This document shows positions 18,636 through 37,114 of a stretch of DNA of 64,000 bases, piece after piece. A program made the position numbers and the translations under genes. Below the pieces are notes generated by a model. The model searched no databases and was not told where the DNA came from. It worked only from the letters and a program-made list of their open reading frames with translations. Within the stretch, counting starts at the first letter, position 1, and each line of letters starts with the position of its first letter. Origin of the DNA: Longimicrobiales bacterium (lineage in GTDB: Bacteria > Gemmatimonadota > Gemmatimonadetes > Longimicrobiales > Gaopeijiaceae); the NCBI GenBank assembly GCA_965226375.1, contig CBDDCX010000006.1, forward strand, positions 608,001 to 672,000, read 5' to 3'.

Positions 18636-18842
18636 GACGGGTAACGTAGGCGGGCCTTGGCGGGCCAGCTACGGTGATGGCCCATCCAGACGACGACTTC
18701 AGCCGAAAGGAGCCCTCCAGGAACCGACGCTCCCACCCTCCGGTATTGGATGGGTCAAACCGTCAGTCCGGTCCATTGGCCGCCTGAACCCGCCTTCACT
18801 ACTCTTGGTGTGGGTGGACAGTCTCTCTCGCCGTTGGTGATC

Positions 18843-20135
18843 ATGCGTTTCACGACCTACGCCAAGTATCGGGGCCGCTGGTTCGACGCCCTGAACCTCG
18901 AGAACCTGATGGAGTTCCTCTCGGACTTCTTGATGGACGGAGGATTCGCGGGTGGCCCCAATTACCACCCGTATTGGGGATGGTCGGGCCTCGAGGAAAC
19001 CGACTCGACGGACTCGCTCAAGAACGCGCTGCTCAAGGCGCTCATCGAGAGTGGCCAGCTCACTCCCGAGATGATCGACGAGCTCCGGGGAGAGGGCCAG
19101 GGAGACGAGGCTATCCAACAGCAGATCGCCGATCTTCTGGACGACCTCATCCAACGCATGGTGGACGAGGGATACATCACGCTGGAAAACGGAACCCCGT
19201 CCATGCCGGGGGCGGTGCAGGACGTCACCGGCTTAGGGGAGATCGACGAAGCGAAGGAGGCCGCCCAGCAGGTACAGTTCAACGTCACTCAAAAGGGGAT
19301 GGACTTCCTCGGGTACCGGGCGCTCCGCAACCTCCTTTCCGCAGTGGGTCAATCGAGCCTCGGGTCTCACGAGACTCCCCACCTAGCCACCGGCGTCGAG
19401 GCGGACGCCACGAGCAAGCCCTACGAGTTCGGCGATACGCTCAATCTCGATGTACCGGCCACGTTGAAGAACGCAATCGAGAGGGAGGGAATCGGGGTTC
19501 CGCTGAACCTCGACTATAAGGACCTCATGGTGCACCAGACCGAGTATCGCTCGTCATGCGCCACGGTGCTCATGCTGGACATCTCCCACTCGATGATTCT
19601 GTACGGCGAGGATCGCTTCACCCCTGCAAAGCGGGTGGCCTTGGCACTCTCCCACCTCATCCGAACCCAGTTCCCGGGTGACTCCTTGAACGTGGTCACC
19701 TTCGGGGACGTGGCCGAGGAGATTCCGCTCAGTCAGTTGGGCAAGGCCCAGGTGGGGCCTTTCCACACCAACACCGCCGGTGGGCTACTCTTGGCTCGCA
19801 ACATCTTGAAGGCGCAGAAGAAAGACATGCGCCAGATCATCATGATCACCGACGGAAAGCCTAGCGCCATCACCATGCCCGACGGGCAGATCTACATGAA
19901 CTCGGGTGGAATGGACCAGCACATCCTGAGGGAGACGTTCAGAGAGGTCTCCGCGTGCCGCCGATCAGGGATCCTGATCAACACGTTCATGCTAGCTCAG
20001 GATCCCTACCTGGTGCAGTTCATCCAGAAGGTGTCGGAGATCGCCCGGGGCAAGGCGTACTTCACGTCAACCCAGACGCTCGGGCAGTACATCATGATGG
20101 ACTTCCTACGGAAGAAGCGGCGCAATATCGGGTAG
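18843..20135 (+). CDS. VWA-domain protein (partner of chelatase-like ATPase)
   Basis: MIDAS motif LDISHSM, HTNT, MITDGKPS; KPYEFGDTLNLD. Confidence 0.88.
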   Translation: MRFTTYAKYRGRWFDALNLENLMEFLSDFLMDGGFAGGPNYHPYWGWSGLEETDSTDSLKNALLKALIESGQLTPEMIDELRGEGQGDEAIQQQIADLLDDLIQRMVDEGYITLENGTPSMPGAVQDVTGLGEIDEAKEAAQQVQFNVTQKGMDFLGYRALRNLLSAVGQSSLGSHETPHLATGVEADATSKPYEFGDTLNLDVPATLKNAIEREGIGVPLNLDYKDLMVHQTEYRSSCATVLMLDISHSMILYGEDRFTPAKRVALALSHLIRTQFPGDSLNVVTFGDVAEEIPLSQLGKAQVGPFHTNTAGGLLLARNILKAQKKDMRQIIMITDGKPSAITMPDGQIYMNSGGMDQHILRETFREVSACRRSGILINTFMLAQDPYLVQFIQKVSEIARGKAYFTSTQTLGQYIMMDFLRKKRRNIG

Positions 20136-21145: not shown

Positions 21146-21892
21146 TCAGAACGTACCGACAAGGCTGAAGAACAGTTGCCCGTCGTTGTTGGAGCGAGCC
21201 CCGCGAGCCACCGCCTCACTGTCGTATGCGTCAACGAAAGAGAGCTGCAACGCGATCGTCTGGTTGAGCCGGAAAGCGAGGCTGTTACGCGACGTGAGGG
21301 TGTAGGTGGAGAGATCCGTCACTTCAGGTTCGTACGTGGTGTCACTCTCCCAGCGTATGGGACCCCCATCCGCCCCCCAGGTGATCTTGAGCCGGGCAGA
21401 GCCCTTCCCGACGACGCCCTCTTCTTCGCCGGCGCCCTCTCGGGGAATGGTCTTCTCAGCAACCACTGCAAGGCTCATCTCGGCCTGAGCACCATCCTCG
21501 GACCCGAACTGATACCGCCCGCCGGCCCCGGCGTTGTAGCGAAGATCGATCTTCTTTTCGAAAACCGACTCCATCTTTCCTCGCACGAAGCCGTTCAGCG
21601 CGCTGCCCGAGGCCAGATTCGCCTCCAGCTCCCCATCCCAGGCCCGCTTGTTCACACGGTTGTCCCCGTCCTCGTTGCTGGACTCTCCGTACGCGAAGCC
21701 CAACCTGCCGGCCCAGTCGAGCACACCTTGGTCGAACGTTCCGGAGAGGGCGGTGGTCACGGCCGACTGGCTGGTGTTGCCAAAGAAGATGCTCGCCCCG
21801 ACCTCGGTCTTCGCGGACCACCTCTTCTCCTGTCCGTAAGCCGGACCCGCAACAAGGATCAGGCCTGCGAGGACCACGATCATACCTCTCAT
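21146..21892 (-). CDS. DUF481-like outer-membrane beta-barrel protein
   Basis: Signal peptide, GNTS motif, amphipathic beta strands, GGRYQF, C-terminal Phe. Confidence 0.75.
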   Translation of the reverse strand: MRGMIVVLAGLILVAGPAYGQEKRWSAKTEVGASIFFGNTSQSAVTTALSGTFDQGVLDWAGRLGFAYGESSNEDGDNRVNKRAWDGELEANLASGSALNGFVRGKMESVFEKKIDLRYNAGAGGRYQFGSEDGAQAEMSLAVVAEKTIPREGAGEEEGVVGKGSARLKITWGADGGPIRWESDTTYEPEVTDLSTYTLTSRNSLAFRLNQTIALQLSFVDAYDSEAVARGARSNNDGQLFFSLVGTF

Positions 21893-22134
21893 ATTGACGA
21901 CTTTCCGTTACGGACCGGAGTCCACCCACTCGCGGACCTGTACCACCGGCCATTGCGCGCTCACTGGCGATCGGCCGAGCGCAGTGAAGTATTCTGCGAC
22001 GGGCGGAAGCTACCCCGTGAGGTCACGCGGGTTCACGCATGGGGCCCCTTGCCCGTTCCGTCCGCCCTGAACACGTTTACGTCCCGCCGGCACCCACTCG
22101 GGCGGACCTCACCTCATCTCTGGCTGAAGCTGCA

Positions 22135-22380
22135 TTGAGCAATATTTCCGAGCGCCCCCTGGCCGGTCTCACGATCCGGATCGATCGAGACCTGTGCGTA
22201 GGATTCGGTGACTGTATCGATGCCGGCCCTGACGTGTTCGAGTTCGACGAAGAGAGCATTGCCGTCTTCAAGGAGGGCAACCCCGACATCGACCGAGAGG
22301 CGCTCCTAGATGCCTGTTCGTCGTGTCCGGTCGACGCTCTCACGGCCCTGGATGAGGAGGGGACCCAGCTCGTCCCGTAG
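22135..22380 (+). CDS. single-cluster ferredoxin (probably 3Fe-4S)
   Basis: IDRDLCVGFGDC...ACSSCPVDAL; the second Cys position is replaced by Phe. TTG start is approximate. Confidence 0.85.
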   Translation: MSNISERPLAGLTIRIDRDLCVGFGDCIDAGPDVFEFDEESIAVFKEGNPDIDREALLDACSSCPVDALTALDEEGTQLVP

Positions 22381-22402
22381 CGGAGGACTACTGCCGAATC
22401 CG

Positions 22403-23302
22403 ATGCGCAAGATCAGAAGCTACCGAGAGGTCACCCACGAGACCGGGTCCCAGCTCCTCGAGCAGGTAGTCGAGCAACAGGAGCGACTCGCGGCGCGGCT
22501 CGCTCCCGTGGGATCGGTGGTGGCCGTGGCCAGCGGAAAAGGCGGTGTGGGCAAGAGCGCCATTACAGCGAATCTGGCCGTCGCTCTCGCCGAGCGCGGA
22601 TTGTCGGTCGGAGCCGCCGACGCGGATCTCAACGGGCCTTCTCTGGGCCGTATGCTGGGGGTGTCTGGCGCGCGCCTGGTCGATCGAGCGGAGGGAGTGG
22701 AGCCGGCCGTGAGCCCCACGGGAGTACGAGTCATGTCCATGGAGTTGCTCCAACAGGACGAGGACACGCCACTTCGGTGGCGAGAGCCGTCTACCGGAGG
22801 ATTCATTTGGCAGAGCACATTGGAGACCGGCGTGCTAAGAGAGTTTCTGGGTGACGTTGCGTGGGGCAACCTCGACGTTCTACTGGTCGACGTTCCCCCC
22901 GGAACGGACAAGATCGCCCGCCTCATGGAGTTGGTGCCGGATCTCGATCAGATGCTCCTCGTGACCACTCCGTCGGAGACCTCCCGCTTCGTCGTCTCGA
23001 AATCGGTGAGGATGGCGCGCGAGGCGGGCGTCCCGATCGTGGCCCTGGTGGCGAACATGACGGAGCACGTCTGCCCTTCCTGCGGGCACACGTCCCAGCT
23101 GTTCCACGGCGACGGGGCCCGGCGTCTGGCCGAGGAGTCGGGCGTACCGCTCTGGGGCGACATCCCCTTCGACGCGCGGCTCGGCGCTTCCACCGACCTG
23201 GGATCGCCGCTGGTGCAGGAAGACCCGGAAGCGGCCTCCAGCCGCGCGCTCTCGGCTCTAGCCGACCGAGTCGCCGCCGCCATCGAGGGGAATACGGAAT
23301 GA
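22403..23302 (+). CDS. Mrp/NBP35 (ApbC) P-loop ATPase, Fe-S carrier family
   Basis: SGKGGVGKS, DADLNGPS, WGNLDVLLVDVPPGT, VTTP, ANM...CPSCG. Confidence 0.92.
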   Translation: MRKIRSYREVTHETGSQLLEQVVEQQERLAARLAPVGSVVAVASGKGGVGKSAITANLAVALAERGLSVGAADADLNGPSLGRMLGVSGARLVDRAEGVEPAVSPTGVRVMSMELLQQDEDTPLRWREPSTGGFIWQSTLETGVLREFLGDVAWGNLDVLLVDVPPGTDKIARLMELVPDLDQMLLVTTPSETSRFVVSKSVRMAREAGVPIVALVANMTEHVCPSCGHTSQLFHGDGARRLAEESGVPLWGDIPFDARLGASTDLGSPLVQEDPEAASSRALSALADRVAAAIEGNTE

Positions 23303-23772
23303 AGTTTCTCTGCCTCGAGTGCGACGACGTGATGGACTTCGCCGAGCGGCAGCTTCCCGGCGACGGAACGCTGACCGCCGTGTTCAGATGCGGCTCCTGC
23401 GGACGAGAGGTCGCAATGCTCACGAACCCCATGGAGACGCAGCTCGTGTCGAGCTTGGGAGTGAAGATCGGGGGTCGCGAGGTACCCTCGCAGCCCCTCG
23501 AGATGGTCCGCACCTCTCTCGAGGGGGGCAGAGAAGAGGCCTTCGACATCTCGGGGGACATTCCGAGACAGCCGCCCGAGCAGCCCACACCCACTGGGCA
23601 GCCGGTCGGATGGAGCCCTGAGGCCACGGAGCGCTTAGCCAAGGTCCCCAGCTTTGTGCGAGGCATGGTGAAGCGTATCTACGTCGACTGGGCCAAGGAA
23701 AACGGGGTGGCCGAGATGACGCCAGATGTCATGGACCGGGCCCGGACCGATCTGGGCTTGGAGGATATGTAG
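23299..23772 (+). CDS. Zn-ribbon plus PCP_red-like domain protein
   Basis: ATGA overlap with mrp; MKFLCLECD...CGSCG; C-terminal WSPEATERLAKVPSFVRGMVKR...AKENG...MTPDVMDRAR. Confidence 0.85.
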   Translation: MKFLCLECDDVMDFAERQLPGDGTLTAVFRCGSCGREVAMLTNPMETQLVSSLGVKIGGREVPSQPLEMVRTSLEGGREEAFDISGDIPRQPPEQPTPTGQPVGWSPEATERLAKVPSFVRGMVKRIYVDWAKENGVAEMTPDVMDRARTDLGLEDM

Positions 23773-23869
23773 GCTTGTTCCCGGCCAGGGTGGACGGTAC
23801 ATACTCGGACCTGATTGCCGTCTTTAATATGGGCGATTCCGGTAGGGAGTAGGTGTCCGTTCGGGTTTG

Positions 23870-23899
23870 TTGACAGGTCTCAGAAGGGCCGGGTATACT
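23870..23899 (+). promoter_or_regulatory. sigma70-type promoter
   Basis: TTGACA-N18-TATACT. Confidence 0.6.
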
Positions 23900-24226
23900 G
23901 GCCCCCGGGTACGACCCCCTCGCAGCCTCGGAGGGGCAGGACAAGGGCTCGCGAGACACTCGGTACAAGGGCATAATACGAGGTTCACGAGGACTGAAAT
24001 CCTCGTCTTCGGGGCTCGGCGTAGCCGGCCCCCTATATGTATTAATTGTTGCAGCGATAATCGTTGCCGGGCGCCTGACGTCTAGCTGGAGAAGTGCAAG
24101 CTCGATCGATGATCCGTCTTCCCTTCTTGGGGGAAGAGCGGACCGCTCCGAAGGACTCGGAGAGAGGAGGCTCTGTGCTGCCGGAAGACGAAGGTGCTAG
24201 GCTAATCGACTATGCCCGAGGTGTTT

Positions 24227-26353
24227 ATGTACCGTGAAGTCTTCGTACCGGTCGACAATTCCCCACATTCGCACTGGGCCGTCGATCGGGCCATTGAAGT
24301 CTGTGCCCGTTCGGACGGACAGATCACCGGCAACCACGTCTATGCGGCACGTCTACACGACGTTCGCTTTAGGCAACTCGAAACCGGTCTTCCCGCTCAA
24401 TTCCAGAGTGCCGCAGAGATCAAACGGCAACGGAAGATTCACGACAAGCTGATCGAGAAGGGTCTTCAGCTCATCTCCGATTCGTTCCTCGACCAGACGT
24501 CCAAGGCATGTGACGCGGCTGGGGTCACCTTGACCAGGCAACTGCTCGAGGGCATCCACTACGAGGAGGTCATCCGCGAGGCCAACGCCGGCCATGGACG
24601 GCTGCCCAGCCTCATCGGCTTCGACCCGAACATCGCCGATAAGTACGACGGGGGTGACACGGTCCGGAGCGACGTGGCCATCGACGACGATGGACGCATC
24701 ATCGCCGAGGACGAGGAGCAAGACGAAAAACTCGCCGGCTCGAGCGGTCGCAAATACGACCTGATGGTCATCGGAGCCCACGGCATCGGCAAGCAGCCGT
24801 ACTCCCAACTCGGCGGCATGGTCTCCCGCGTAATCCGGGGGGTCGAAAAGGATACGCTGATCGTCCGGGACGACAAGGCGTTGGCGAACGGCGATTGGGT
24901 TATTTGTGTCGACGGCTCCTCGTACTCCTACAAGGCGATGCGGCTGGCTCTCGAGATGGCGAGGGACTTCGGGGCAAAGCTCCATGTATGCTCGGCCTTC
25001 GACGTGGAATACCACCACGCCGTGTTCGGCAACATCAAGGACATCCTCTCGGTCCAGGCCTCGAAAGTGTTCAAGTTCGAGGAGCAGGAAGAGCTCCACA
25101 ACAACATCATCGACAAGGGTCTGCTGAAGCTCGCCCAGGCGAACCTCAAGCGAGCTCAGGTGATGGCTGACCAGTTCCCTGACGTAGAGGTCGAGACACA
25201 GATCCTGATCGGCAAGCCATTTCAGTGCATTCTTCAGTGGATTGAAGAACTCGAACCGAGCCTCGTGGTCATCGCACGTCACGGCGGACACCGGGTCGAG
25301 GGCACTGACATGGGCTCACAAGCGGACAACCTTTGTCGACTCGCCCACAGCAACATCCTTCTGGTCGGGACCTTGGACGTCCGTCCCGACGACATCCCTT
25401 GGATCGAGGAGGACGGTGAGACGGGCCTCGAATGGTCGCCCGACGCCGAGGTCCGCATCCTGCGCGTGCCTTCCTTTGCTCTCGGGATTGCCCGTAAGGC
25501 GGTAGAGGAATACGTGCTGGACAACTACGGAAGTGGGGCCAACGGCACGTACCGAGAGGATCCGCTCCCGTCGACAAACGGTTCCGCCACCAGCGGGATC
25601 GCCGCATCGAATGGTGCCGCCTCGCCCGACGCAGTGGAGCAGGAGTGCACGGCAGTACCTCCCCTAGGGGCCGGCGGCCTACCCATGGTTACCAGCCCAC
25701 GGCTGGACGAGGCCATTCAAAAGCTCCTTCCCACCCACATGCAGTTGATTATGGGAATCGGCACGGCGGAGGAACTCGCCCTGGCCGAAGTGAAGGCCGA
25801 CGAGGCCATGAAACGCACCGTTGTGGAGGGCCTGGACGCCGACCCGATTCCGGATGTGCCCATGGTCTCGGGCACGTGCCCCCACTCGGGACACATACTG
25901 AACCGCGAACGAACGGCCCAGGATCCAGTCCAATGGACCCAAGAGGCCTTCGAGCGACTCAAGGCCGTTCCGCTCATCGCCAGACCTTTGGCTCGGAACA
26001 CAGTGGAGCGCTTTGCCCGTGAGCAGGACATCTGGCGCGTGACGACACCGGTCATGGACGAGAACAAGCAGGCCATGATCGAGGCGGACGAGTTCGATAT
26101 GGACACCATGCTGGTCATGTTCCGTGAGCTCCAGACCAAACAGATCAGGGCGGAGGCCGAGGGAGTCGACGGGCTCACACCCGAAATGCGGAAGTTTATC
26201 GAAGAGGCCAAGGCCAGCGGCGTCACTCGCTGCCCCATCCGCGACGTGGCGGAAGCGGCCGACCAGTGCCCGGTCGACATAAAGACCGTTTCGCCCGAAG
26301 ACGCCAAGGCGGCCGTCGAGCAGTTCATGAACAAAGAGGCCAACAAGGCGTGA
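24227..26353 (+). CDS. tandem universal stress protein (2 x USP) with two PCP_red-like domains and Cys-Pro motifs
   Basis: VPVDNSPHSHWAV, DLMVIGAHGIG, CVDGSSYS, VVIARHG..MGSQADNL; WSPDAEVRILRVPSFALGIARKAVEEY and WTQEAFERLKAVPLIARPLARNTVERFARE; GAGGTG RBS before ATG 24227. Confidence 0.85.
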   Translation: MYREVFVPVDNSPHSHWAVDRAIEVCARSDGQITGNHVYAARLHDVRFRQLETGLPAQFQSAAEIKRQRKIHDKLIEKGLQLISDSFLDQTSKACDAAGVTLTRQLLEGIHYEEVIREANAGHGRLPSLIGFDPNIADKYDGGDTVRSDVAIDDDGRIIAEDEEQDEKLAGSSGRKYDLMVIGAHGIGKQPYSQLGGMVSRVIRGVEKDTLIVRDDKALANGDWVICVDGSSYSYKAMRLALEMARDFGAKLHVCSAFDVEYHHAVFGNIKDILSVQASKVFKFEEQEELHNNIIDKGLLKLAQANLKRAQVMADQFPDVEVETQILIGKPFQCILQWIEELEPSLVVIARHGGHRVEGTDMGSQADNLCRLAHSNILLVGTLDVRPDDIPWIEEDGETGLEWSPDAEVRILRVPSFALGIARKAVEEYVLDNYGSGANGTYREDPLPSTNGSATSGIAASNGAASPDAVEQECTAVPPLGAGGLPMVTSPRLDEAIQKLLPTHMQLIMGIGTAEELALAEVKADEAMKRTVVEGLDADPIPDVPMVSGTCPHSGHILNRERTAQDPVQWTQEAFERLKAVPLIARPLARNTVERFAREQDIWRVTTPVMDENKQAMIEADEFDMDTMLVMFRELQTKQIRAEAEGVDGLTPEMRKFIEEAKASGVTRCPIRDVAEAADQCPVDIKTVSPEDAKAAVEQFMNKEANKA

Positions 26354-27729
26354 TCCGCAGCGTCGACCGCACCTCCTCCTCTGCTGCGACGCTGTCGCCG
26401 CCGGCTCCGGCCGAACGGCGAGACGCCCCAGGTCAGCGCTCCGGCAACGGCTACGTGCCGCACGTCGTCGCGTGGAACCTGACCAAACGGTGCAACCTCG
26501 AGTGCGCACACTGCTACATATCCGCCGGATCGTGGCATCTGGCCTCAGAGGAGCTCTCCACCGAGGAGTGCTTCCGTGTCCTCGACGAGATCCTCGAGGT
26601 CAACCCCCACCCGATGCTCATCCTGACGGGCGGAGAGCCGCTGGTACGGGATGATCTGGAGGCCATCGCCGAGAGGGCGTCCTCTCGAGGAGCCACGGTA
26701 GTCGTCGGAACCAACGGCACCAGGCTGACCGGAGAGCGCATCGACTCGTTGATGGCGGCGGGGATCAAGGGTGTTGCCGTAAGCATCGACTCGCTTCGAT
26801 CCGAATACCATGATCGCTTCCGGCATGGCGGCGGTGCCCTCACCGACACGATGGCCGCCGTCGAACGATGTGCCGAACGCAAGCTGGACTTCGTCATCCA
26901 GACAACCGTAACTACGGGAAATCGGCATGAGATTGCCGATTTGGCGAATTGGTCGGCCACGGCCGGAGCTGTTTCCTTTAATGTGTATTTCGTGGTCCCG
27001 ACGGGTCGGGCCGAGCTGATGGGCGGTATGACGCCTGCCGAGAACGATGAGGTCCTCCAGGAATTGGTCGCGCTCGAGCAGACGTACCGGGGGCGAATGA
27101 TGATTCGCTCCAAGTGCCAACCGCAGCTCATGCGCCACGTCATCGACGGCGATCCGGACTCGCCTTTGCTCAACTACGAGACGCGCTGCCCCTGCGGCGT
27201 GCACTACGTGCGAATCACTCCCGAGGGCAAGGTCACGCCCTGCCCCTATATGCCCGTTGTCGCCGGCGACCTGATGAAGGACAGCTTCCGAACCATCTGG
27301 CAGACCTCGGAGGTCTTCAGTGATCTTCGGTCGGGCCAGCTCTCGGGACGCTGTGGGCGCTGCGAATACCGCGAGGTATGCGGTGGCTGTAGAGCCCGGG
27401 CTTACGCGGAGACGGGCGATTTTCTGGGCCCGGACGACTCGTGCGTCTACGAGCCCACGGGTGAGGTACCCCTGATTGCTCGGGTACAGGCCGTAGCCTA
27501 CGGTCAGGCGGCCGCGTCCGAGATGGCTTGGTCCCCAGAGGCCCGGGCTCGTCTGGACAAGGTTCCGAGTTTCGTGAGGGGGGTCGTGACGGCCCGCGTC
27601 GAGAAATTCGCCCTTGAAAGGGGCTATTCCAGCGTAGATATCGAGGTCACGGAAGAAGTGCGTAAGAGCCTTCCCGTAGATTTCTCGAAAAAGCTTCCGT
27701 TCTTTCTCGGTAGAGGAGGTACGGCATGA
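26350..27729 (+). CDS. radical SAM/SPASM enzyme (AhbD/NirJ-like) with C-terminal PCP_red-like domain
   Basis: GTGA overlap; WNLTKRCNLECAHCY, LTGGEPL, GTNG; SPASM CPCG..ITPEGKVTPCPY..CGRCEYREVCGGCRARA..C; WSPEARARLDKVPSFVRGVV. Confidence 0.9.
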   Translation: MIRSVDRTSSSAATLSPPAPAERRDAPGQRSGNGYVPHVVAWNLTKRCNLECAHCYISAGSWHLASEELSTEECFRVLDEILEVNPHPMLILTGGEPLVRDDLEAIAERASSRGATVVVGTNGTRLTGERIDSLMAAGIKGVAVSIDSLRSEYHDRFRHGGGALTDTMAAVERCAERKLDFVIQTTVTTGNRHEIADLANWSATAGAVSFNVYFVVPTGRAELMGGMTPAENDEVLQELVALEQTYRGRMMIRSKCQPQLMRHVIDGDPDSPLLNYETRCPCGVHYVRITPEGKVTPCPYMPVVAGDLMKDSFRTIWQTSEVFSDLRSGQLSGRCGRCEYREVCGGCRARAYAETGDFLGPDDSCVYEPTGEVPLIARVQAVAYGQAAASEMAWSPEARARLDKVPSFVRGVVTARVEKFALERGYSSVDIEVTEEVRKSLPVDFSKKLPFFLGRGGTA

Positions 27730-27810
27730 ACCGGCGCGCTAGAAGGCTGTTGACAAGAAAGGAAACGTGATGAGTCGAGGGAGCCGACGACTCGGCGTGG
27801 CAGTGCGGCA

Positions 27811-29571
27811 TTGAAGTTCCTGGGGGCCTTGGGCCTGGTGGGCCTGGTCTTCCAGGTCTTCCCAGACGCCGCGTGGGCGCAGGACGTTGCGGTACGGCAG
27901 TACGGCGACTTTCCCATGGTGGGGAGTCGGGTCGCGGTGTGGGTGGCCGCGCAGGTGCACCTCCTCTTCGCAGCGTTCGTTCTCGGGGTACCGATGTTTG
28001 CGGTCGTAGCAGAGGCCATCGGCATCTTCGCGGGTCACGAGAAGTACGATAAGCTCGCCAAGGAATTCACCCGACTCCTCCTGGTGGCCTACTCAGCCAC
28101 GGCGATCTGGGGAGCGATCCTATCCTTCCTGCTCGTCACCCTGTATCCGAGACTTTGGATCTATCTGGCGGAGATCTTCGAATTCTCCATGTGGATCTAT
28201 GTAGGCCTCTTCTTTCTCGAGTCGTTCACGCTGTACCTCTACTACTACGGCTGGGATCGCTGGAAGAAGGGGCGTGCCAAGCTGGCTCACTGGGGTCTGG
28301 GCATCATGCTCAACGTGTGGGGCACCACCGTCATGTTCATCGCCAACTCCTGGTTGACGTACATGATGAGCCCGCCCGCCGATGTCGGCCCCGACACGTC
28401 ACCGGCCATGGTCCAATTCTGGAGCGCCTTCGCCAACGCGACCTGGATGCCGATCAACATCCACCGGATTATCGCGAACGTGGTCTTCGGTGGTGCTATC
28501 GTGGGCGCCTACGCCGCCTACCGCTTCCTAATGGCAAAGACGGATGAGGAACGCGCCCACTACGACTGGATGGGCTACGTCGGCAACCTGATCGCCATCG
28601 GTGCGCTCATCGTCCTTCCGTTCGCCGGTTACTACCTGGGCCGCGAGGTCTACGAGTTCAACCAGCAAATGGGCATCACCATGATGGGCGGGTTCATGAG
28701 CTGGCTTTGGATTATCCAGGCCTTCCTCATCGGTGTGTTGTTCCTGACCGGCAACTACTACCTCTGGGTGGGAATGGGCCGGATTCCCGGGGCCGAACGT
28801 TTCACTCCCTACACGAAATACATGCTGGTGGTACTCGTGATCGGGGTGATGGTATGGGCCACGCCGCACACCATGATCGCCAACAGAGAAGAAATCGCCG
28901 CGATGGGAGGCACCAACCACCCCTTCCTGGGTGTCCTCGGGGTCATGAGCGCCAAGAACACGGCTGTGAACATCATGATCCTGACCACGTTCCTGTCCTT
29001 CCTGCTCTATCGTCGCGCAAACATTCGGCCGACGGTCAGTTGGGCGAGGACCGGAACCCTGATTCAGGCGGCTCTGTTCATCATCGCCGCGGGCATCGTG
29101 ATCTTCTACGGGATCTACGGATACTTCGTCAGCGCAATCGTCCGGATTGGATTCTCGGTCTATCAGGTGCTGGCGGTGCTCTTCACGATCTTCGCGGTCG
29201 TCGGGATCGATATTGTTCTCGCGCGGGGCGCGGAGTCCAGGGGCGAGATCCGCTGGGGACAGATGCCTCCGAGGTCTCAGTACGCCCTCTTCATTCTCGC
29301 CGTCACGTTCACCTGGCTCATGGGCCTCATGGGCTTCGCTCGCAGTGGAATCCGACAGCACTGGCACGTCTGGGAGGTCATGCGTGACACCAGCGAGTGG
29401 GCGGCGACGCCGGCCCTGGGCTACGCGTCCGTGGTGATCTCGGTGTGTGTGCTGATCTTCCTCACGTTGGTTGCCTTCATCTTCTGGCTCGGCGGACTCG
29501 CGGAGAAGCCTGTGATATCGGGCGCCGGTGCCTCGTCCTCGCCTGAGCTCGCTCCTGCGGCAGGCGATTGA
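27811..29571 (+). CDS. cytochrome bd-like oxidase subunit I (OR-N / Nitrospira-type), no CydB partner
   Basis: AQVHLLFAAFVLGVP, FFLESFTLY, ANSWLTYMMSP, NIHRIIAN, MGLMGFARSGIRQHWHV; many TM helices. Start uncertain (possible ATG 27770 with a missing G). Confidence 0.85.
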   Translation: MKFLGALGLVGLVFQVFPDAAWAQDVAVRQYGDFPMVGSRVAVWVAAQVHLLFAAFVLGVPMFAVVAEAIGIFAGHEKYDKLAKEFTRLLLVAYSATAIWGAILSFLLVTLYPRLWIYLAEIFEFSMWIYVGLFFLESFTLYLYYYGWDRWKKGRAKLAHWGLGIMLNVWGTTVMFIANSWLTYMMSPPADVGPDTSPAMVQFWSAFANATWMPINIHRIIANVVFGGAIVGAYAAYRFLMAKTDEERAHYDWMGYVGNLIAIGALIVLPFAGYYLGREVYEFNQQMGITMMGGFMSWLWIIQAFLIGVLFLTGNYYLWVGMGRIPGAERFTPYTKYMLVVLVIGVMVWATPHTMIANREEIAAMGGTNHPFLGVLGVMSAKNTAVNIMILTTFLSFLLYRRANIRPTVSWARTGTLIQAALFIIAAGIVIFYGIYGYFVSAIVRIGFSVYQVLAVLFTIFAVVGIDIVLARGAESRGEIRWGQMPPRSQYALFILAVTFTWLMGLMGFARSGIRQHWHVWEVMRDTSEWAATPALGYASVVISVCVLIFLTLVAFIFWLGGLAEKPVISGAGASSSPELAPAAGD

Positions 29572-29632: not shown

Positions 29633-30430
29633 ATGCTTGCAGAGAATCTGAGGATCTTGGCGGTCGTTCTCGGGACCCTTGGGATCTTCACCCTGGTGGC
29701 GAACTCCATTCCCCAAGTCCAGTCCGAGGTGCCACAGGAGCTGACCTTTGGAGCCAACGTCACGGCGGCCGAATTGGTCTCGTCGGGAGGGACCCTTTAC
29801 AACGGGGCGGGCGGTTGTGTGGCCTGCCACGGGCTGGGGACTCGCGCCCCCAACCTCTTGACGGACGCAGGCGGCACGGGCTCCATCGGGCAACGTTGTG
29901 GCGACCGCGTGAGTGGGCAGGACTGCAAGACCTACTTGTACAACTCCATGACGGACCCGGCCGGCTTCCTGGTCGAAGGCTATAATCCGATCATGCCCGA
30001 CATGCGCCGCTCCCTTTCGGACGCACAAATCTGGTCGGTCGTCGCCTTCCTGCAGGATCAGGGTGGCGAAGTAACGGTCACCGGAGCTGACCTCACCGCA
30101 GAGGACGGAGGGGCGGAGCCGGCCGCTGCTGCTGCGCCCACGGCCGCTGCTCCGGCGACTGCATCCCTCGATCCCGTCGAAATCATGCGGGCCAATACCT
30201 GCCTGGTATGTCATCAGTTCAACGGTGAAGGCGCGCCCATGGGACCGCCCTTCGACGGGATGGGGGGACGGGTAGACGCGGACTACATCCGCCAATCGAT
30301 CCTGGACCCGTCGGCGGGCGCATCGGCGGGCTTCGAAGCGTTCATCGGCGTCATGCCGGCGATCTTCGGTAGCCAGCTTACGGCCGCGCAGCTCGAGGCC
30401 GTGGTTCAGTTCCTGGCCAGCCAACAGTAA
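29633..30430 (+). CDS. membrane-anchored diheme cytochrome c
   Basis: N-terminal TM; CVACH...IMP and CLVCH...VMP. Confidence 0.9.
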   Translation: MLAENLRILAVVLGTLGIFTLVANSIPQVQSEVPQELTFGANVTAAELVSSGGTLYNGAGGCVACHGLGTRAPNLLTDAGGTGSIGQRCGDRVSGQDCKTYLYNSMTDPAGFLVEGYNPIMPDMRRSLSDAQIWSVVAFLQDQGGEVTVTGADLTAEDGGAEPAAAAAPTAAAPATASLDPVEIMRANTCLVCHQFNGEGAPMGPPFDGMGGRVDADYIRQSILDPSAGASAGFEAFIGVMPAIFGSQLTAAQLEAVVQFLASQQ

Positions 30431-30447: not shown

Positions 30448-31245
30448 ATGGGCAAACACTTCAAGCATCCCTTCGGCCAAGCGGTTCTGGTCTTGGCGCT
30501 GTCGTACATCGTGCTGGACTATGGCATCGTATATCTCCCACCCCTGGTCGGGATCGCCAGCGCCCCCATCCCGAACTCCGTCCTCTTCCAGTTCATGCTG
30601 ACGGCCGCCGTCGGCGTATTGCTCTGGGTGAGTGACAACGAGGAGCGTTGGACGGAGTTCAAGGCCCCGATACACCGGACAATGGTGGATCCGCAGAAGA
30701 AAACGGTACGGGGACTCTTCATGGTGGCCATCCCCCTTCTGGTGGCTTTCGGCACGTTCAACCGGGTCCGGCCGTCCGTGGCCGCGCCCATCAGCCTCAG
30801 GTCGGTCCATCCGGCTCCTCCCGGCCGGATCGACTTTCAGGGCACGGACATGGAGCTTGCCGGACTCGAGAACCCTTTGAGGTCGACGGGCTCTATGGAG
30901 GACCACTATGAAGAGGGCAAGAGGATCTACTATGAGAACTGCCTCGCTTGCCACGGCGACGGGCTGAACGGGCAGGGCCACTACGCGGCCGCGTTCACCC
31001 CGGCCCCCGCCAACTTCGAAGACATCGGCACCATCGCCCAGCTGACGGAAAGTTTCGTCTTCTGGAGGATCGCCAAGGGCGGCCCCGGCCTCCCGAATGA
31101 AGGCGCCCCCTGGAATTCGGCGATGCCGGCCTGGGAAGATTTTCTGACCGAGGACGAGATCTGGTCGGTGATCATCTTTTTGTATGAGCAGACGGGGCAT
31201 GAGCCTAGGACTTGGGAGGAAGCTGAAGAGGGGGAGGAGCACTGA
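30448..31245 (+). CDS. multi-TM monoheme cytochrome c
   Basis: About three hydrophobic segments, then CLACHG, FWRIAKGGPGLP, SAMPAW. Confidence 0.88.
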   Translation: MGKHFKHPFGQAVLVLALSYIVLDYGIVYLPPLVGIASAPIPNSVLFQFMLTAAVGVLLWVSDNEERWTEFKAPIHRTMVDPQKKTVRGLFMVAIPLLVAFGTFNRVRPSVAAPISLRSVHPAPPGRIDFQGTDMELAGLENPLRSTGSMEDHYEEGKRIYYENCLACHGDGLNGQGHYAAAFTPAPANFEDIGTIAQLTESFVFWRIAKGGPGLPNEGAPWNSAMPAWEDFLTEDEIWSVIIFLYEQTGHEPRTWEEAEEGEEH

Positions 31246-31307
31246 TGCGGGGCTTCGCGAAGGACATGGCAAGGAGCGTTTGTGTCGGATCCTCTTGCTT
31301 TGTGGGT

Positions 31308-31388
31308 AGGGGCCTTCGCGGGTTTCCCTCTCCACTCAAGCAATCTTCGATTGAACTTCGTTCCGAGGGAAACCTCGCGGCGGCCCCT
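31308..31388. repeat. intergenic long imperfect inverted repeat (REP/MITE-like)
   Basis: AGGGGCC..CGCG-GGTTTCCCTC ... GAGGGAAACC-t-CGCG..GGCCCCT. Confidence 0.6.
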
Positions 31389-31400
31389 GGAGCACGGCGG

Positions 31401-32999
31401 ATGACGGATCCGCTGAACATGCGGATCACCAAGGTGGTCGCGGGGGCATTCGCTCTCATCCTGGTTTTCTGGCTTGGGGCGGGAGGGTTGGAGGGACAGG
31501 AGGGCGGCGACCTCGGACAGGTCACTTATGAACAGTGGTGTGCGGGTTGCCACGGGTTGGACGGGACGGGGACGGGGGATGGGGCTTCGATCATGTTGCC
31601 TCGGCCTCGGGATTTCAGTCAGGCGCTGTACCAGATCCGGACTACGGCCAGTGGGGAGCTTCCGACGGACGATGACATTCTGAACGTTATCGATGTGGGA
31701 ATGCCGGGGACGACGATGCCGGGGTGGGAAGACCTGTTGTCGCGGGATGAGCGCGAGGCGCTGGTTCAATACCTCAAGACGTTTTCGCGGTTTTTCTCGC
31801 CCGACGAGGTGCCCGAGGCTCTCGACTTCGGCAGGCCGACCAGGGTGTCGGAGGAAGTGCTCGTGGAGGGAAGGGCCCAATACGACGCGATCGAGTGCTG
31901 GAAGTGTCATGGCGACCAGGGGCGCGGTGAGGGACAGTCCTCGCCCACGCTGGGTGACGACAACGGCTTCCCGGTCCGGGCGGCGGACCTGACCGAGAAC
32001 TGGTTGTTCAACGGCGGAGGCACGGTCGAAGACATCTATGCCCGTCTGCGTACGGGTCTCGATGGAACGCCCATGCCTAACTTCTCGGACCTGATCGACG
32101 CCGAGGTCATGACCGACGACCAGCTCTGGGCGCTCGCGCACTACGTGCGGAGCCTTTCCCCCGAGGAATCCCCCGGGATCGAAGAGGTGGTGAAGGCCGA
32201 GCTCCTTGAGGACGCCGCACTCCCTACGACCGTCGACGACCCGCTGTGGGACTCCGCCGAGGCGGCGTACATCCCGCTGGCGGGACAGATCATCGTGAAG
32301 CCCCGTTGGTTCGACCCGCGGGTCGACGGCGTGTGGGTCCAGGCCATCCACGACGGCCAGGACGTCGCCGTGCGAGTGCGCTGGAGCGACCCCAATCTGA
32401 GCCCGGATCCGGAGTGGGCCGACTGGAAGTCAGAGGTCGTCTCGTATATGGGCCCCGCAGAAGGTGACCCACCCGAAGCCGGGCCGACACCGGATCAACT
32501 CCTCATCCAGTTCCCCATGCAGATGCCTCAGGGGATGGAGCGACCGTACTTCATGAGGGGCGACAACCGTCGCCCGGTCTATCTCTGGCAGTGGCAGGGT
32601 GATCGCAGCACGGCCCTGGAGGGCGAGGCCAGAGGGATAGGCACCGAGACTTATCCGACGGACGGACAGGACCTCAGCTTGAACGCCTCTCACGTGGACG
32701 GCCAATGGCAGGTTATGTTCACCCGCTCTCTGGTCACCGCGGACGAGGCCGATCTGGACTTCGTCACGGGACAAGCCATACCGGTGGCGTTCTTCGCCTG
32801 GGATGGGGACAACGGAGAGTCGGGCACGCGAGGTGCCGTGAGTTCGTGGTATTTTCTGTTCCTCCAGGACGCCACGTCCAACACCGTGTACATTGCCCCG
32901 GTCCTGGCTATGATGCTCACGGCGGGTCTCGGTATTCTCGTGGTGGGGAGGGCTCAGAAGCGGGAGGAAGAGGGCGGGATTGTCGAAGAAACGGAATAA
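31401..32999 (+). CDS. diheme cytochrome c fused to an ethylbenzene dehydrogenase gamma/NxrC-like (DOMON-type heme) domain, C-terminal TM
   Basis: CAGCH, PRPRDF, GTTMP, CWKCH, GLDGTPMP; VQAIHDGQDVAVRVRWSD, IQFP, RPYFMRGD, WQVMFTRSL, AFFAWDG. Start 31401 has a GGAG RBS; track start is 31245. Confidence 0.85.
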   Translation: MTDPLNMRITKVVAGAFALILVFWLGAGGLEGQEGGDLGQVTYEQWCAGCHGLDGTGTGDGASIMLPRPRDFSQALYQIRTTASGELPTDDDILNVIDVGMPGTTMPGWEDLLSRDEREALVQYLKTFSRFFSPDEVPEALDFGRPTRVSEEVLVEGRAQYDAIECWKCHGDQGRGEGQSSPTLGDDNGFPVRAADLTENWLFNGGGTVEDIYARLRTGLDGTPMPNFSDLIDAEVMTDDQLWALAHYVRSLSPEESPGIEEVVKAELLEDAALPTTVDDPLWDSAEAAYIPLAGQIIVKPRWFDPRVDGVWVQAIHDGQDVAVRVRWSDPNLSPDPEWADWKSEVVSYMGPAEGDPPEAGPTPDQLLIQFPMQMPQGMERPYFMRGDNRRPVYLWQWQGDRSTALEGEARGIGTETYPTDGQDLSLNASHVDGQWQVMFTRSLVTADEADLDFVTGQAIPVAFFAWDGDNGESGTRGAVSSWYFLFLQDATSNTVYIAPVLAMMLTAGLGILVVGRAQKREEEGGIVEETE

Positions 33000-33037: not shown

Positions 33038-33889
33038 ATGACGGATCGAACTGAACTGCGTAGGGTGTTCACGCCCGCGCTGGTGGCACTTTTTGCTATG
33101 GGCTGCGGTGGTGGTGACGGTGGCGGAAGCAGCTCCGGTGGCGACTCCGGCGGAGCCGCAGTCGAGAACCCGGTCGACGCGGCGACGGCGGGTAACATCG
33201 CCGGTTCCATCGTCTTCGAGGGCGACGCACCCGCGATGGCCACCATCGACATGAGCGACGAACAGGTGTGCGCGGACAAGCACTCGTCGACTCCCATGAT
33301 CGAAGAGGTCTCGGTGAGCGACGGCATGCTCGCCAACGTGTTCGTCTACGTTAAGGAGGGGCTGGAGAGCCTGCAGTTTCCGACCCCTGGCCCAGCGCTT
33401 CTCGACCAGGACGGTTGCACATACCTCCCGCACGTCCTCGGCGTCATGACGGACCAGGACATCACCATCCGTAACAGCGACGGCGTGCTGCACAACATCA
33501 ACGCCTCGCCGAGCGAGCAGCGTGGCTTCAACACCAGTCAGCCGATCAACATGGAGAGCACCCGGAGCTTCGGCACGGTCGAGATCATGGTTCCGGTGCG
33601 CTGTGACGTGCATGGCTGGATGACCGCCTACATCGGTGTGCTGCCTCACCCGTACCATTCGGTGTCCAGCTCCGACGGAAGCTTCGACCTGTCCACGCTC
33701 CCCCCGGGTGACTATGTGATCGAGGCATGGCACGAGCGCTACGGTGCTCAGACTCAGAACGTAACCGTGGCCACCGGCGAGACCGCCGAGGTCACGTTCA
33801 CTTTCAGCGCGTCCATGGCCGGTGCCGTAGTTCCGTTGGGTGAGCCCGTCGATCTTCACGACCACACGGCGGCTACCGACAGAGACTAG
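33038..33889 (+). CDS. lipoprotein with cupredoxin-like and carboxypeptidase-regulatory-like domains
   Basis: Lipobox LFAMGC; DQDGCTYLPHV, LHNI, CDVHGWM (type 1 Cu-like ligands), PPGDYVIEAWHE. Confidence 0.8.
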   Translation: MTDRTELRRVFTPALVALFAMGCGGGDGGGSSSGGDSGGAAVENPVDAATAGNIAGSIVFEGDAPAMATIDMSDEQVCADKHSSTPMIEEVSVSDGMLANVFVYVKEGLESLQFPTPGPALLDQDGCTYLPHVLGVMTDQDITIRNSDGVLHNINASPSEQRGFNTSQPINMESTRSFGTVEIMVPVRCDVHGWMTAYIGVLPHPYHSVSSSDGSFDLSTLPPGDYVIEAWHERYGAQTQNVTVATGETAEVTFTFSASMAGAVVPLGEPVDLHDHTAATDRD

Positions 33890-33980
33890 AACGCAGGGAG
33901 GGCCCGTCGGTTGAGTGCGGCCGGCGGGGCCGACCCGAAGTGTTGTTCCAATCGAGCTTCCGGCTCGGGAGAGGAATCAG

Positions 33981-34664
33981 ATGAACTTTTCCTGGCTCAT
34001 GCCAGAGACCGTGTCCACCTTTGGACCGGCCCTGGACGACCTCTACTACGTGATCCTGTGGATTACGGGCATCGTGTTCTTCATCACGGAGATCGTGTTG
34101 GTGGTCCTCCTGGTGAAGTACCGCTACAAGGAAGGTCGCAAGGCTGCATACATTCACGGCAGCAACAAGGCCGAGGTCGTTTGGACCATCACCCCGTTCG
34201 TCATCGTGATGGGGCTAGTCATCTATTCCAAAGGACTCTGGGACGAAATCCGGGATCCGGCGAACATTCCGCCCAACGCGTATGCGATCGACGTCACGGC
34301 AAAGCAGTACGAGTGGAACGCGACGTACCCGGGTGCGGATGGTCAGCTTGGCACCGCGGACGACTTCGTATCTCGAAACGCACTGCATATTCCGGTGGAT
34401 CGACCGGTGCGAGTCAACCTCCGCGCCGAAGACGTGCTCCACTCCTTCTTCCTTCCCGCGTTCCGGGTAAAGCAGGACGCGGTGCCCGGCATGATGACCC
34501 CGGTGTGGTTCGAGGCGACCCGGACGGGTGAGTTCACGCTCGCATGTGCGGAGCTGTGTGGACTGGGGCACTACCGAATGAAGGGCTCTGTCACGGTCCA
34601 TTCGCAGGCCGATTTCCAGTCCTGGCTCGACGGCCGGCAAGCCGACGAGGAGGACGACCGATGA
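33981..34664 (+). CDS. coxB: cytochrome c oxidase subunit II
   Basis: Two TMs, EVVWT, DVLHSF, KQDAVPG, CuA motif CAELCGLGHYRM; GAGG RBS. Confidence 0.96.
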   Translation: MNFSWLMPETVSTFGPALDDLYYVILWITGIVFFITEIVLVVLLVKYRYKEGRKAAYIHGSNKAEVVWTITPFVIVMGLVIYSKGLWDEIRDPANIPPNAYAIDVTAKQYEWNATYPGADGQLGTADDFVSRNALHIPVDRPVRVNLRAEDVLHSFFLPAFRVKQDAVPGMMTPVWFEATRTGEFTLACAELCGLGHYRMKGSVTVHSQADFQSWLDGRQADEEDDR

Positions 34665-36454: not shown

Positions 36455-36457
36455 TCT

Positions 36458-37114
36458 ATGAGCCACGCTGCAACCGCGACGATGGACCGTAGGCCCATGC
36501 CCGGCATGAAGGTCTACAACAACAAGCTGGGCATGTGGGTGTTCCTCCTCAGCGAGGTGATGTTCTTCACCTCGCTGATCGGCTCGTACGTGATACTCCG
36601 CTTCGCACACCCGGACCATTGGACGAACCCGGGCGTAGTCTTGAACGTCCCGCTCACGGCCATGAACACGTTCTTTCTGATCTGCTCTTCAGTGACGATG
36701 GTGAAAGCGTTCGCGGCCGTCGAACACGGAGATCAAAAGGGCCTCAAGCTCTGGCTCCTGGCCACGATCCTTATCGGAGCGTCCTTCGTGGGTATTCAGG
36801 TCGTCGAGTACATCGCCCTGTCCGGCGAGGGATTCCTTCCCGCACTCGATGCGTACCACGCCGTGGGGCGTGGCAATCCCCACGATGGCCCGGCACTCGG
36901 TGGCCCGCTGTACGGGGCGACCTTCTACGCCATGACAGGCTTTCACGGTGCACACGTCTCCATTGGTGTGCTCGCCCTGATTTTCGTATATGTCAAAGCA
37001 CTCCGTGGAGGATACACCACGGAGGACCACCAGGGCGTCGAGGTCATAGGCCTGTATTGGCACTTCGTAGACCTGGTGTGGATCATTCTCTTCACCATCG
37101 TCTACCTGATTTGA
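36458..37114 (+). CDS. coxC: cytochrome c oxidase subunit III
   Basis: GMWVFLLSEVMFF, TGFHGAHV, LYWHFVDLVW. Confidence 0.95.
   Translation: MSHAATATMDRRPMPGMKVYNNKLGMWVFLLSEVMFFTSLIGSYVILRFAHPDHWTNPGVVLNVPLTAMNTFFLICSSVTMVKAFAAVEHGDQKGLKLWLLATILIGASFVGIQVVEYIALSGEGFLPALDAYHAVGRGNPHDGPALGGPLYGATFYAMTGFHGAHVSIGVLALIFVYVKALRGGYTTEDHQGVEVIGLYWHFVDLVWIILFTIVYLI

Follow-up and report, generated by a model that had tools for sequence, protein, structure and literature searches.

PCP_red (Pfam PF08369, gathering cut-off 32.5 bits) is a small domain of three helices which is part of every BchB/ChlB, the B subunit of dark-operative protochlorophyllide reductase (DPOR), where it forms the C-terminus, and which has been solved twice by structural genomics (2KRU, the Chlorobium BchB domain, and 2L09, Nostoc Asr4154). 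Here we describe a locus in which this domain occurs four times, on three consecutive proteins named ZnPCP, UspPCP2 and rSAMPCP, encoded next to an Mrp-type P-loop ATPase. The locus lies in a stretch of 64,000 nucleotides, referred to below as the window, from a Longimicrobiales bacterium of the phylum Gemmatimonadota (GenBank assembly GCA_965226375.1, contig CBDDCX010000006.1, positions 608,001 to 672,000 of the forward strand). The main clue to the function of this gene set is its co-inheritance with a cytochrome bd-like oxidase operon, and we estimate a probability of about one half that the set is a haem and iron-sulfur (Fe-S) cofactor maturation unit, in which PCP_red would be the shared docking handle. 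Every domain comes from a known family, but the system fits no described one: what appears to be new is the combination of a haem-type radical S-adenosylmethionine (SAM) enzyme, a private Fe-S ATPase and helper proteins, seemingly tied together by a shared small domain.

The copies in the window have in common with the C-terminus of BchB/ChlB both the fold and the signature W..A..R..VP..R. In contrast to DPOR, however, the system has no nitrogenase-like body: PCP_red is fused to a zinc ribbon, to a pair of universal stress protein (USP) domains and to a radical SAM enzyme, with four copies in one operon. The NCBIfam models for BchB match only the last 50-70 residues of the carriers (33-39 bits against cut-offs of 490-509). 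The original prediction had noted that bch/chl genes are absent from the window, and this holds for the whole genome (4,227,178 bases, 90% completeness, the scope of all genome-wide negatives given here), in which a six-frame search with PCP_red found no BchB and the only hit for NifH/BchL-type proteins was a P-loop match of 28 bits. A DPOR or nitrogenase-like reading of the cluster was therefore rejected.

The radical SAM protein can be compared with AhbD, the radical SAM haem b synthase (TIGR04545), and with NirJ2/NirJ of the haem d1 branch (TIGR04055/TIGR04051), with which it has in common a full-length match, a CX3CX2C motif and a SPASM domain. It differs from AhbD in its C-terminal PCP_red, which lies outside the 339-position AhbD model, and in a genome which has ChdC and in which no AhbA/B was found. 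The ATPase shares PF10609, a Walker A motif and a CxxC with the Mrp/ApbC/NBP35 (NUBPL) proteins, including the MrpORP of the Desulfovibrio orange-protein complex, but scores below the equivalog cut-offs, is a second paralogue in its genome, is always paired with ZnPCP and has lost the CxxC in a minority of its orthologues. As for the oxidase, bd-like oxidases of the OR-N family occur widely among environmental bacteria, Nitrospirota and Gemmatimonadota included, and we know of no account of their cofactors, their assembly or even their substrates. In the Murali preprint the CydA-like subunit of this family is described as lacking haem c motifs, the electron donors being separate proteins encoded in the same operon. 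Compared by this description, the oxidase in the window is the same, with a CydA-like subunit free of haem c motifs and separate donors (c-type cytochromes, EB_dh). The terms 'radical SAM', 'Mrp' and 'universal stress' do not occur in the main text of that preprint, supplements aside.

PCP_red copies, their carriers and the adjacent Mrp

The original prediction recognised a recurrent tryptophan-led motif in four places and assigned it to PCP_red. Both points were borne out: Trp codons stand at 23611, 25433, 25934 and 27529, and PF08369 matches all three proteins above the cut-off (hmmscan; ZnPCP 45.8 bits, UspPCP2 58.0 bits over two stretches, rSAMPCP 52.8 bits). The first copy in UspPCP2 (copy 2) is partial and, taken alone, scores below the cut-off; a search with a hidden Markov model (HMM) built from the four copies of the window locates it in this position in all complete related loci. 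A six-frame search of the whole genome returned exactly four PCP_red matches, all of them in the window, which excludes chance. At the sequence level the domain also matches BchB/ChlB chains with E values of 5e-6 to 2.5e-4.

Structural models agree with this assignment. The AlphaFold model of ZnPCP (mean predicted local distance difference test score, pLDDT, of 64) runs from a zinc-ribbon-like N-domain of three strands (pLDDT 60-69) through a disordered linker (residues 65-100) to a C-domain of three helices (residues 100-157, pLDDT ~86). This C-domain superimposes on 2KRU with Z 9.5 and a root-mean-square deviation (rmsd) of 1.9 over 57 residues, on residues 479-528 of ChlB in 2YNM_D with Z 6.2 and rmsd 1.5 over 50 residues, and on 2L09 with Z 6.2. 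The model of UspPCP2 copy 3 matches 2KRU with Z 7.3 and rmsd 3.0 over 58 residues, so that the three-helix bundle of 2KRU and the ChlB C-terminus is found in both proteins. The C-terminal model of UspPCP2 has a mean pLDDT of 65, and its matches, to 2KRU and to AAA+ lid-like helical bundles, are confined to residues 130-238 of the modelled piece. After 2KRU, the structures closest to PCP_red are the helical lid domains of AAA+ ATPases (RuvB, RuvBL1/2; Z 6-7), values in the chance range for small helical bundles, and no conclusion was drawn from the AAA+ resemblance of the UspPCP2 tail.

Among the structural matches listed, the only DPOR entry is 2YNM, in which the L protein is bound, though the BchB/ChlB chains of 3AEK, 2XDQ, 8VQI and 9BUO match by sequence; the PCP_red part may be unmodelled in DPOR entries other than 2YNM. 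According to a cryo-EM study of DPOR (PMC12022308), the helix covering protochlorophyllide (Pchlide) ends near residues 410-415. This end lies some 60 residues ahead of the PCP_red part (456-520 in 3AEK_B, in the numbering of a Rhodobacter relative).

The three carriers are otherwise unrelated by Pfam, as had been claimed: one has a zinc ribbon, one has two Usp domains (PF00582, 99 bits in two stretches) and one has Radical_SAM and SPASM domains. In ZnPCP, four cysteines (C5, C8, C31 and C34) are followed by a conserved LTNPxETQ stretch which precedes the linker, and across 46 diverse relatives the invariant residues are M1, C5, C8, C34, N43, E46, W105 and P117. Named zinc-ribbon families gave only sub-threshold matches to this N-domain. 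The label RUBY_RBDX, borne by a Nitrospirota cluster in the ESM Atlas, was discarded, being absent when four relatives were scanned, one of them a form of 256 amino acids with two PCP_red domains.

A search of 1.84 billion representatives gave 597 clusters of the ZnPCP family at E <= 0.001, of which 308 reach E <= 1e-10 and 19 reach E <= 1e-30; many of the 597 are full-length with 35-50% identity, and the family is thus common and not a curiosity. A word-indexed search gave 4,600 protein clusters at E <= 0.001, the best 120 of which are 68-100% identical to ZnPCP and all carry PF08369, the few names among these 120 being 'PCP reductase family protein'. Named relatives belong to Bacteroidota/Rhodothermaceae and Candidatus Tectomicrobia, and further clusters in the ESM Atlas are assigned, by automatic labels, most often to Acidobacteriota and Nitrospirota.

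Cys-Pro motifs occur in relatives of both ZnPCP and UspPCP2. A CP[FI] motif is present in the ZnPCP linker, ahead of PCP_red, in 22 of the 46 diverse relatives (P0133, P0146 and P0218 are examples) and is invariant in a nine-member subfamily; the ZnPCP of the window lacks it. At least 95% of 68 aligned UspPCP2 orthologues retain the pairs C555-P556, C673-P674 and C685-P686, the first sitting just before PCP_red copy 3 and the other two in the tail of the protein. Cys-Pro motifs can bind haem, and these are a possible metal or haem site.

In rSAMPCP, Pfam finds Radical_SAM (92.5 bits) and SPASM (34.9 bits) in addition to PCP_red. Of the NCBIfam models, it matches NirJ2 (282.6 bits) and AhbD (273.6 bits), both below their cut-offs of 500 bits, with matches that span the full models (positions 1-325 and 1-339, respectively). 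The protein has 14 cysteines in total, and its CX3CX2C motif (CNLECAHC at residue 48) together with SPASM corresponds to the AhbD type. Some sources name its orthologues 'heme b synthase' or 'AdoMet-dependent heme synthase'. Side-chain remodelling of iron tetrapyrroles is the chemistry common to AhbD, AhbC and NirJ (PMC7242693), and by its profile matches rSAMPCP belongs within the clade of radical SAM enzymes with this activity, without being any of its named members.

rSAMPCP is the sole AhbD/AhbC/NirJ-like gene of the genome, which also has ChdC (184 bits); the siroheme decarboxylase AhbA/B (PF17805), HemF and HemN_C gave no match in the genome. With this complement of genes the organism appears to use the coproporphyrin-dependent haem route, in which coproheme, the substrate of AhbD, is a normal intermediate. 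A canonical siroheme (Ahb) pathway and a haem d1 pathway were both rejected, as no AhbA/B-type genes were found and the AhbD/NirJ-like gene is single.

The neighbouring ATPase is indeed an Mrp, as the original prediction had it, with a deviant Walker A motif (GKGGVGKS) and a CPSC at residue 224. Its scores against the NCBIfam models MrpORP (NF041136, 219.6 bits, cut-off 450) and ApbC (NF008669, 162.4 bits, cut-off 348) are both below threshold, and a second Mrp on another contig (C8) of the genome scores higher (323 bits). By these comparisons the Mrp of the window is a second, dedicated paralogue. In the Mrp family the CxxC bridges a [4Fe-4S] cluster in the dimer. Across 32 Gemmatimonadota orthologues GKGGVGKS is invariant and the CxxC is kept in 27, as it is in all 35 orthologues of the distant lineage described below.

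An assembly of two Mrp chains and one ZnPCP was predicted using alignments from the same 32 loci and three controls. The three runs scored 0.57, 0.62 and 0.54 (median 0.57), all three controls scored 0.00, contact agreement between runs was at least 88% and the partner pLDDT was at least 70. The verdict of the tool was 'weak support': its mark is reached by 116 of 157 solved complexes and by 2 of 215 mismatched pairs, and at scores of 0.60 or below lie only 18 of the 157 solved complexes, together with both mismatches.

Conservation of the gene set and its link with a bd-like oxidase

A scan of genome contigs returned 80 related loci, titled mostly as metagenome-assembled genomes of Gemmatimonadota/Longimicrobiales, with a few labelled Gammaproteobacteria or uncultured bacterium. 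Mrp lies directly upstream of ZnPCP in all 70 loci that have at least 1 kb of upstream sequence. Where the downstream sequence is long enough (4, 7 and 8.5 kb or more, respectively), ZnPCP is followed by UspPCP2 in 62 of 63 loci, by rSAMPCP in 54 of 55 and by the CydA-like gene in 52 of 53. In the window the stop codon of Mrp overlaps the start of ZnPCP (ATGA), an overlap of 4 nt found in 41 of the 43 loci in which both genes are complete, and rSAMPCP probably starts at a GTG that overlaps the stop of UspPCP2 (GTGA). The arrangement of one, two and one PCP_red copies is present in 60 of the 80 loci, as detected with the HMM described above; five loci have three copies and 15 have one, the downstream sequence being shorter there except in L021 (10 kb). 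A ferredoxin homologue is found upstream of Mrp in 53 of the 80 loci and downstream of ZnPCP in 18, with none found in nine. A VWA-domain gene is also seen near the module, upstream of it in the window (18750-20135) and in many Gemmatimonadota loci.

A more distant lineage was sampled by a metagenome scan in which the query was a nine-member ZnPCP subfamily (an alignment of 42 sequences being too diverse), and whose counts describe that subfamily only. It gave 80 loci with a ZnPCP 35-40% identical to that of the window. Mrp is directly upstream of ZnPCP in all 37 loci with at least 900 bp upstream, with the 4-nt overlap in 29 of 35, and an AhbD-like radical SAM protein ending in PCP_red is encoded within 5 kb downstream in all 27 loci with at least 1.4 kb downstream, six of these genes being on the opposite strand. 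The proposal that the domain ties these genes together is supported. Because the triad is always kept in the distant lineage, and UspPCP2 and the CydA-like gene only sometimes, the invariant core is Mrp-ZnPCP-rSAMPCP.

Two of the distant loci, L087 and L156, hold the whole set in another order, namely the CydA-like gene, three cytochrome c genes, UspPCP2, a short gap, Mrp, ZnPCP and rSAMPCP; the association therefore survives rearrangement. The gap before Mrp in L156 is occupied by a GNAT-like gene, and two further loci, L112 and L149, have the order GNAT, Mrp, ZnPCP and rSAMPCP, followed by a VWA gene. The GNAT-type acetyltransferase genes 5' of Mrp are at L156:8078-8917, L112:8190-9056 and L149:1919-4053, and the VWA genes, downstream on the other strand, at L112:11744-14056 and L149:8009-10339.

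The link with the oxidase was also assessed in 401 genomes of the phylum, that of the window (G000) included, with a CydA-like orthologue defined by E <= 1e-60. PCP_red is present in 136 genomes and the CydA-like orthologue in 115: both occur in 114, PCP_red alone in 22, the oxidase alone in one (G346) and neither in 264. In the 114 genomes that have both, the number of PCP_red matches is four in 98, three in 11, five in four and two in one. Among the 22 with PCP_red alone, 20 have just one or two matches, which are mostly higher-scoring; these 20 are taken to be genomes of phototrophic members, in which the match is presumably BchB. The exceptions are G051, with four matches, and G308, with a single weak one. 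The distribution is patchy within the window's own family, in which all 11 genomes of one genus (g2) and none of the 24 of another (g3) have the module, and this patchy and matched distribution argues that module and oxidase were gained and lost together. Neither the co-inheritance with the oxidase operon nor the AhbD/NirJ2-like, haem-type character of rSAMPCP was part of the original prediction.

The CydA-like protein has no CxxCH, and a crude hydropathy scan gave 15 peaks, some of them overlapping, which is too unclean a result for an assignment to OR-N1 or OR-N2. Its gene is followed on the 3' side by three c-type cytochrome genes, which are syntenic in related loci and the third of which also encodes an EB_dh haem-b domain (Pfam). 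The genome has a second CydA-like paralogue (G000:C4:17057-18349, 50% identity over residues 9-442), with no PCP_red nearby. Similar paralogues occur in G059, G085, G126, G289 and G380, all five of which have the main oxidase and the module.

Possible function and competing explanations

In the reading that we favour, rSAMPCP would act on an iron tetrapyrrole, most likely in an O2-independent decarboxylation of coproheme to haem b, or in a further change of its side chains. The product would be haem b made alongside the ChdC route, or a modified haem, destined for the adjacent low-oxygen respiratory chain and its oxidase. The ferredoxin would give the electron for SAM cleavage, while the dedicated Mrp would load the [4Fe-4S] clusters of rSAMPCP or act as an ATP-driven assembly switch. 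ZnPCP, UspPCP2 and rSAMPCP would meet one partner surface through PCP_red, the unit being held together or gated in this way. If true, this reading would assign a role to PCP_red, and a helper set that travels with OR-N oxidases would make it testable which haem these enzymes use, how it is made at low oxygen and what loads the clusters.

Several observations speak against this interpretation. Of the distant loci with at least 9 kb upstream, only two of five contain the CydA-like gene, and of those with at least 4.5 kb, only three of eight have UspPCP2 upstream (it is also seen in four shorter ones); several distant loci are near haem-copper oxidase genes instead (L096, L136 and L149), and such genes are also near the triad in L156. 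Within Gemmatimonadota one locus, L021, is the sole exception in the counts for UspPCP2, rSAMPCP and the CydA-like gene, as it has ferredoxin, Mrp and ZnPCP alone, followed (L021:8500-20483) by an ABC transporter, a PAS histidine kinase, a sigma-54 response regulator, a multi-cupredoxin protein and a dihaem cytochrome c. Since the genes are physically linked, the genome tallies do not give evidence independent of gene order. As to the enzyme, its substrate is a guess, because rSAMPCP scores far below the curated cut-offs for AhbD (273.6 against 500) and NirJ2 (282.6 against 500), and since ChdC is present a second coproheme decarboxylase is not required. As to the ATPase, the CxxC is lost in 5 of the 32 orthologues (L041, L045, L056, L064 and L067) with the P-loop kept, the other module genes being retained in L045, L056 and L067 at least, so that the ATPase of such lineages must have a role other than that of a bridged-cluster carrier. 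The complex prediction gives no interface, and the contact on Mrp could therefore be made by the zinc ribbon as well as by PCP_red. Finally, our literature search found no stated function for PCP_red, DPOR included, and no paper on PCP_red outside DPOR, on the gene set or on any of its members.

The original prediction offered a narrower explanation, in which PCP_red is a specific tag that docks the dimer of a SIMIBI-class ATPase (Mrp here, BchL in DPOR) and Mrp serves its three clients with Fe-S clusters or electrons. This is possible, if doubtful. The strict adjacency of Mrp and ZnPCP in both lineages (70/70 and 37/37), their conserved start/stop overlap and the dedicated nature of the paralogue all fit a partnership of the two proteins, as does the complex score of 0.57 against 0.00 for the best control, and 2YNM, the only DPOR entry among the structural matches listed, is precisely one in which the L protein is bound. 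What stands of the docking proposal is thus a contact between Mrp and ZnPCP at the level of 'weak support'; its attribution to PCP_red does not follow, as the zinc ribbon with its conserved LTNPxETQ could make the contact instead, and UspPCP2, a supposed client, is not always near Mrp (3/8 distant loci). Likewise, delivery of clusters by Mrp is compatible with the orthologues that keep the CxxC but cannot be the whole story, given the five that have lost it. A wider version would make PCP_red a general adaptor for SIMIBI-class ATPase dimers, BchL and the dedicated Mrp alike, with ATP-gated delivery of electrons or clusters, by a nitrogenase-like logic, to a radical SAM haem enzyme making the haem of the bd-like oxidase, which we consider improbable. 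It is similarly unlikely that PCP_red and the Cys-Pro pair preceding it form a domain for handling tetrapyrroles, with coproheme or haem passed among rSAMPCP, a ZnPCP carrier, UspPCP2 as buffer or regulator and the oxidase. Two carriers of PCP_red, BchB and the AhbD/NirJ2-like rSAMPCP, do come from tetrapyrrole enzyme families, and the CP[FI] motif of ZnPCP relatives and the three Cys-Pro pairs of UspPCP2 would suit such a role; however, the ZnPCP of the window has no such motif, the stand-alone structures 2KRU and 2L09 have no known ligand, by their entry titles, and the helix that covers the pigment in DPOR lies before the PCP_red part.

Two other explanations we find harder to accept. The module might be a general O2-independent branch to haem b, an AhbD-type back-up for ChdC which resides in respiratory islands and is not tied to the bd-like oxidase. 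ChdC would make coproheme available to it, haem-copper oxidase genes are also found 3' of the module in the window, and the distant triad is often beside such genes with no CydA-like gene within the retrieved DNA (L096, L136, L149). Nevertheless, this is quite unlikely in view of the nearly one-to-one tracking of module and bd-like oxidase in the phylum (114 genomes with both against one with the oxidase alone), although this test, on linked genes, is not an independent one. Very unlikely is a mainly regulatory set, in which cysteines sensitive to redox or haem, on a USP/ATP-binding scaffold, would respond to hypoxia or haem status and turn on the oxidase or the radical SAM enzyme, PCP_red being a signalling contact. 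UspPCP2 does have two USP domains and conserved Cys-Pro motifs and appears to start its own transcription unit, with a conserved promoter-like block and a leader of ~310 nt, but the Mrp-ZnPCP-rSAM core has no UspPCP2 nearby in five of the eight evaluable distant loci, and Pfam finds no DNA-binding or signalling output domain in the module proteins.

Gene layout and surroundings of the module

The positions of the genes, of the PCP_red copies and of the promoter-like site are collected in Table 1. All genes between 22.0 and 33.0 kb are on the + strand (translations of open reading frames (ORFs), Pfam and NCBIfam).

Table 1 Features of the PCP_red module and the adjoining oxidase genes (positions in the window).
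Feature	Position	Strand	Evidence and remarks
Small [4Fe-4S] ferredoxin	22039-22380	+	Fer4_13 41.3 bits, Fer4_15 39.5 bits (Pfam); true start probably further into the ORF
Mrp/NBP35-type P-loop ATPase	22403-23302	+	PF10609 238.4 bits (cut-off 27.1); 299 amino acids from MRKIRSY (likely start)
ZnPCP	23299-23772	+	157 amino acids; four-Cys zinc-ribbon-like N-domain, LTNPxETQ stretch, variable linker, PCP_red (Pfam, model)
PCP_red copy 1	23611-23745	+	ZnPCP residues 105-149; 45.8 bits (Pfam), 48.3 bits (six-frame genome search)
Sigma-70-like promoter	23870-23899	+	TTGACA-18-TATACT; 11/12 hexamer matches; ~310 nt 5' of UspPCP2
UspPCP2	24212-26353	+	713 amino acids; two USP domains (Usp 99 bits, two stretches), partial and full PCP_red (58.0 bits, two stretches), conserved Cys-Pro tail
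PCP_red copy 2	25433-25519	+	Partial, helices 1-2 only; 24.5 bits alone, profile positions 1-29 of 45
PCP_red copy 3	25934-26068	+	UspPCP2 residues 575-619; 44.6 bits alone, best stretch in UspPCP2
rSAMPCP	26350-27729	+	AhbD/NirJ2-like radical SAM/SPASM with C-terminal PCP_red; likely start GTG 26350, read from the sequence
PCP_red copy 4	27529-27663	+	Residues 422-466 of the long rSAMPCP ORF; 57.4 bits (six-frame search)
CydA-like membrane subunit, cytochrome bd-like oxidase (OR-N-type)	27811-29571	+	PF01654 74.9 bits
Three c-type cytochrome genes	29633-30430, 30448-31245, 31245-32999	+	Pfam; CxxCH counts 2, 1, 2
Haem-copper oxidase subunits	COX1 34544-36454, COX3 36458-37114		3' of the bd-like operon

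A promoter scan of the 440-bp gap between ZnPCP and UspPCP2 (23773-24211) gave one site, against a mean of 1.0 in shuffled sequence, and is not significant alone. A block of ~45 nt around this site is identical in both aligned related loci (L007 and L008), with flanks that vary. Rfam gave no match at E <= 1 over 21500-28000, a range which includes the leader in the gap. Transcription from the promoter-like site would give a leader of ~310 nt with more conserved stretches.

Directly 3' of the bd-like operon, at 33038-37114 in the window, are genes for a CarboxypepD_reg-like protein, an ORF of 206 amino acids and subunits I and III of a haem-copper oxidase, which places the module between two terminal-oxidase gene sets.

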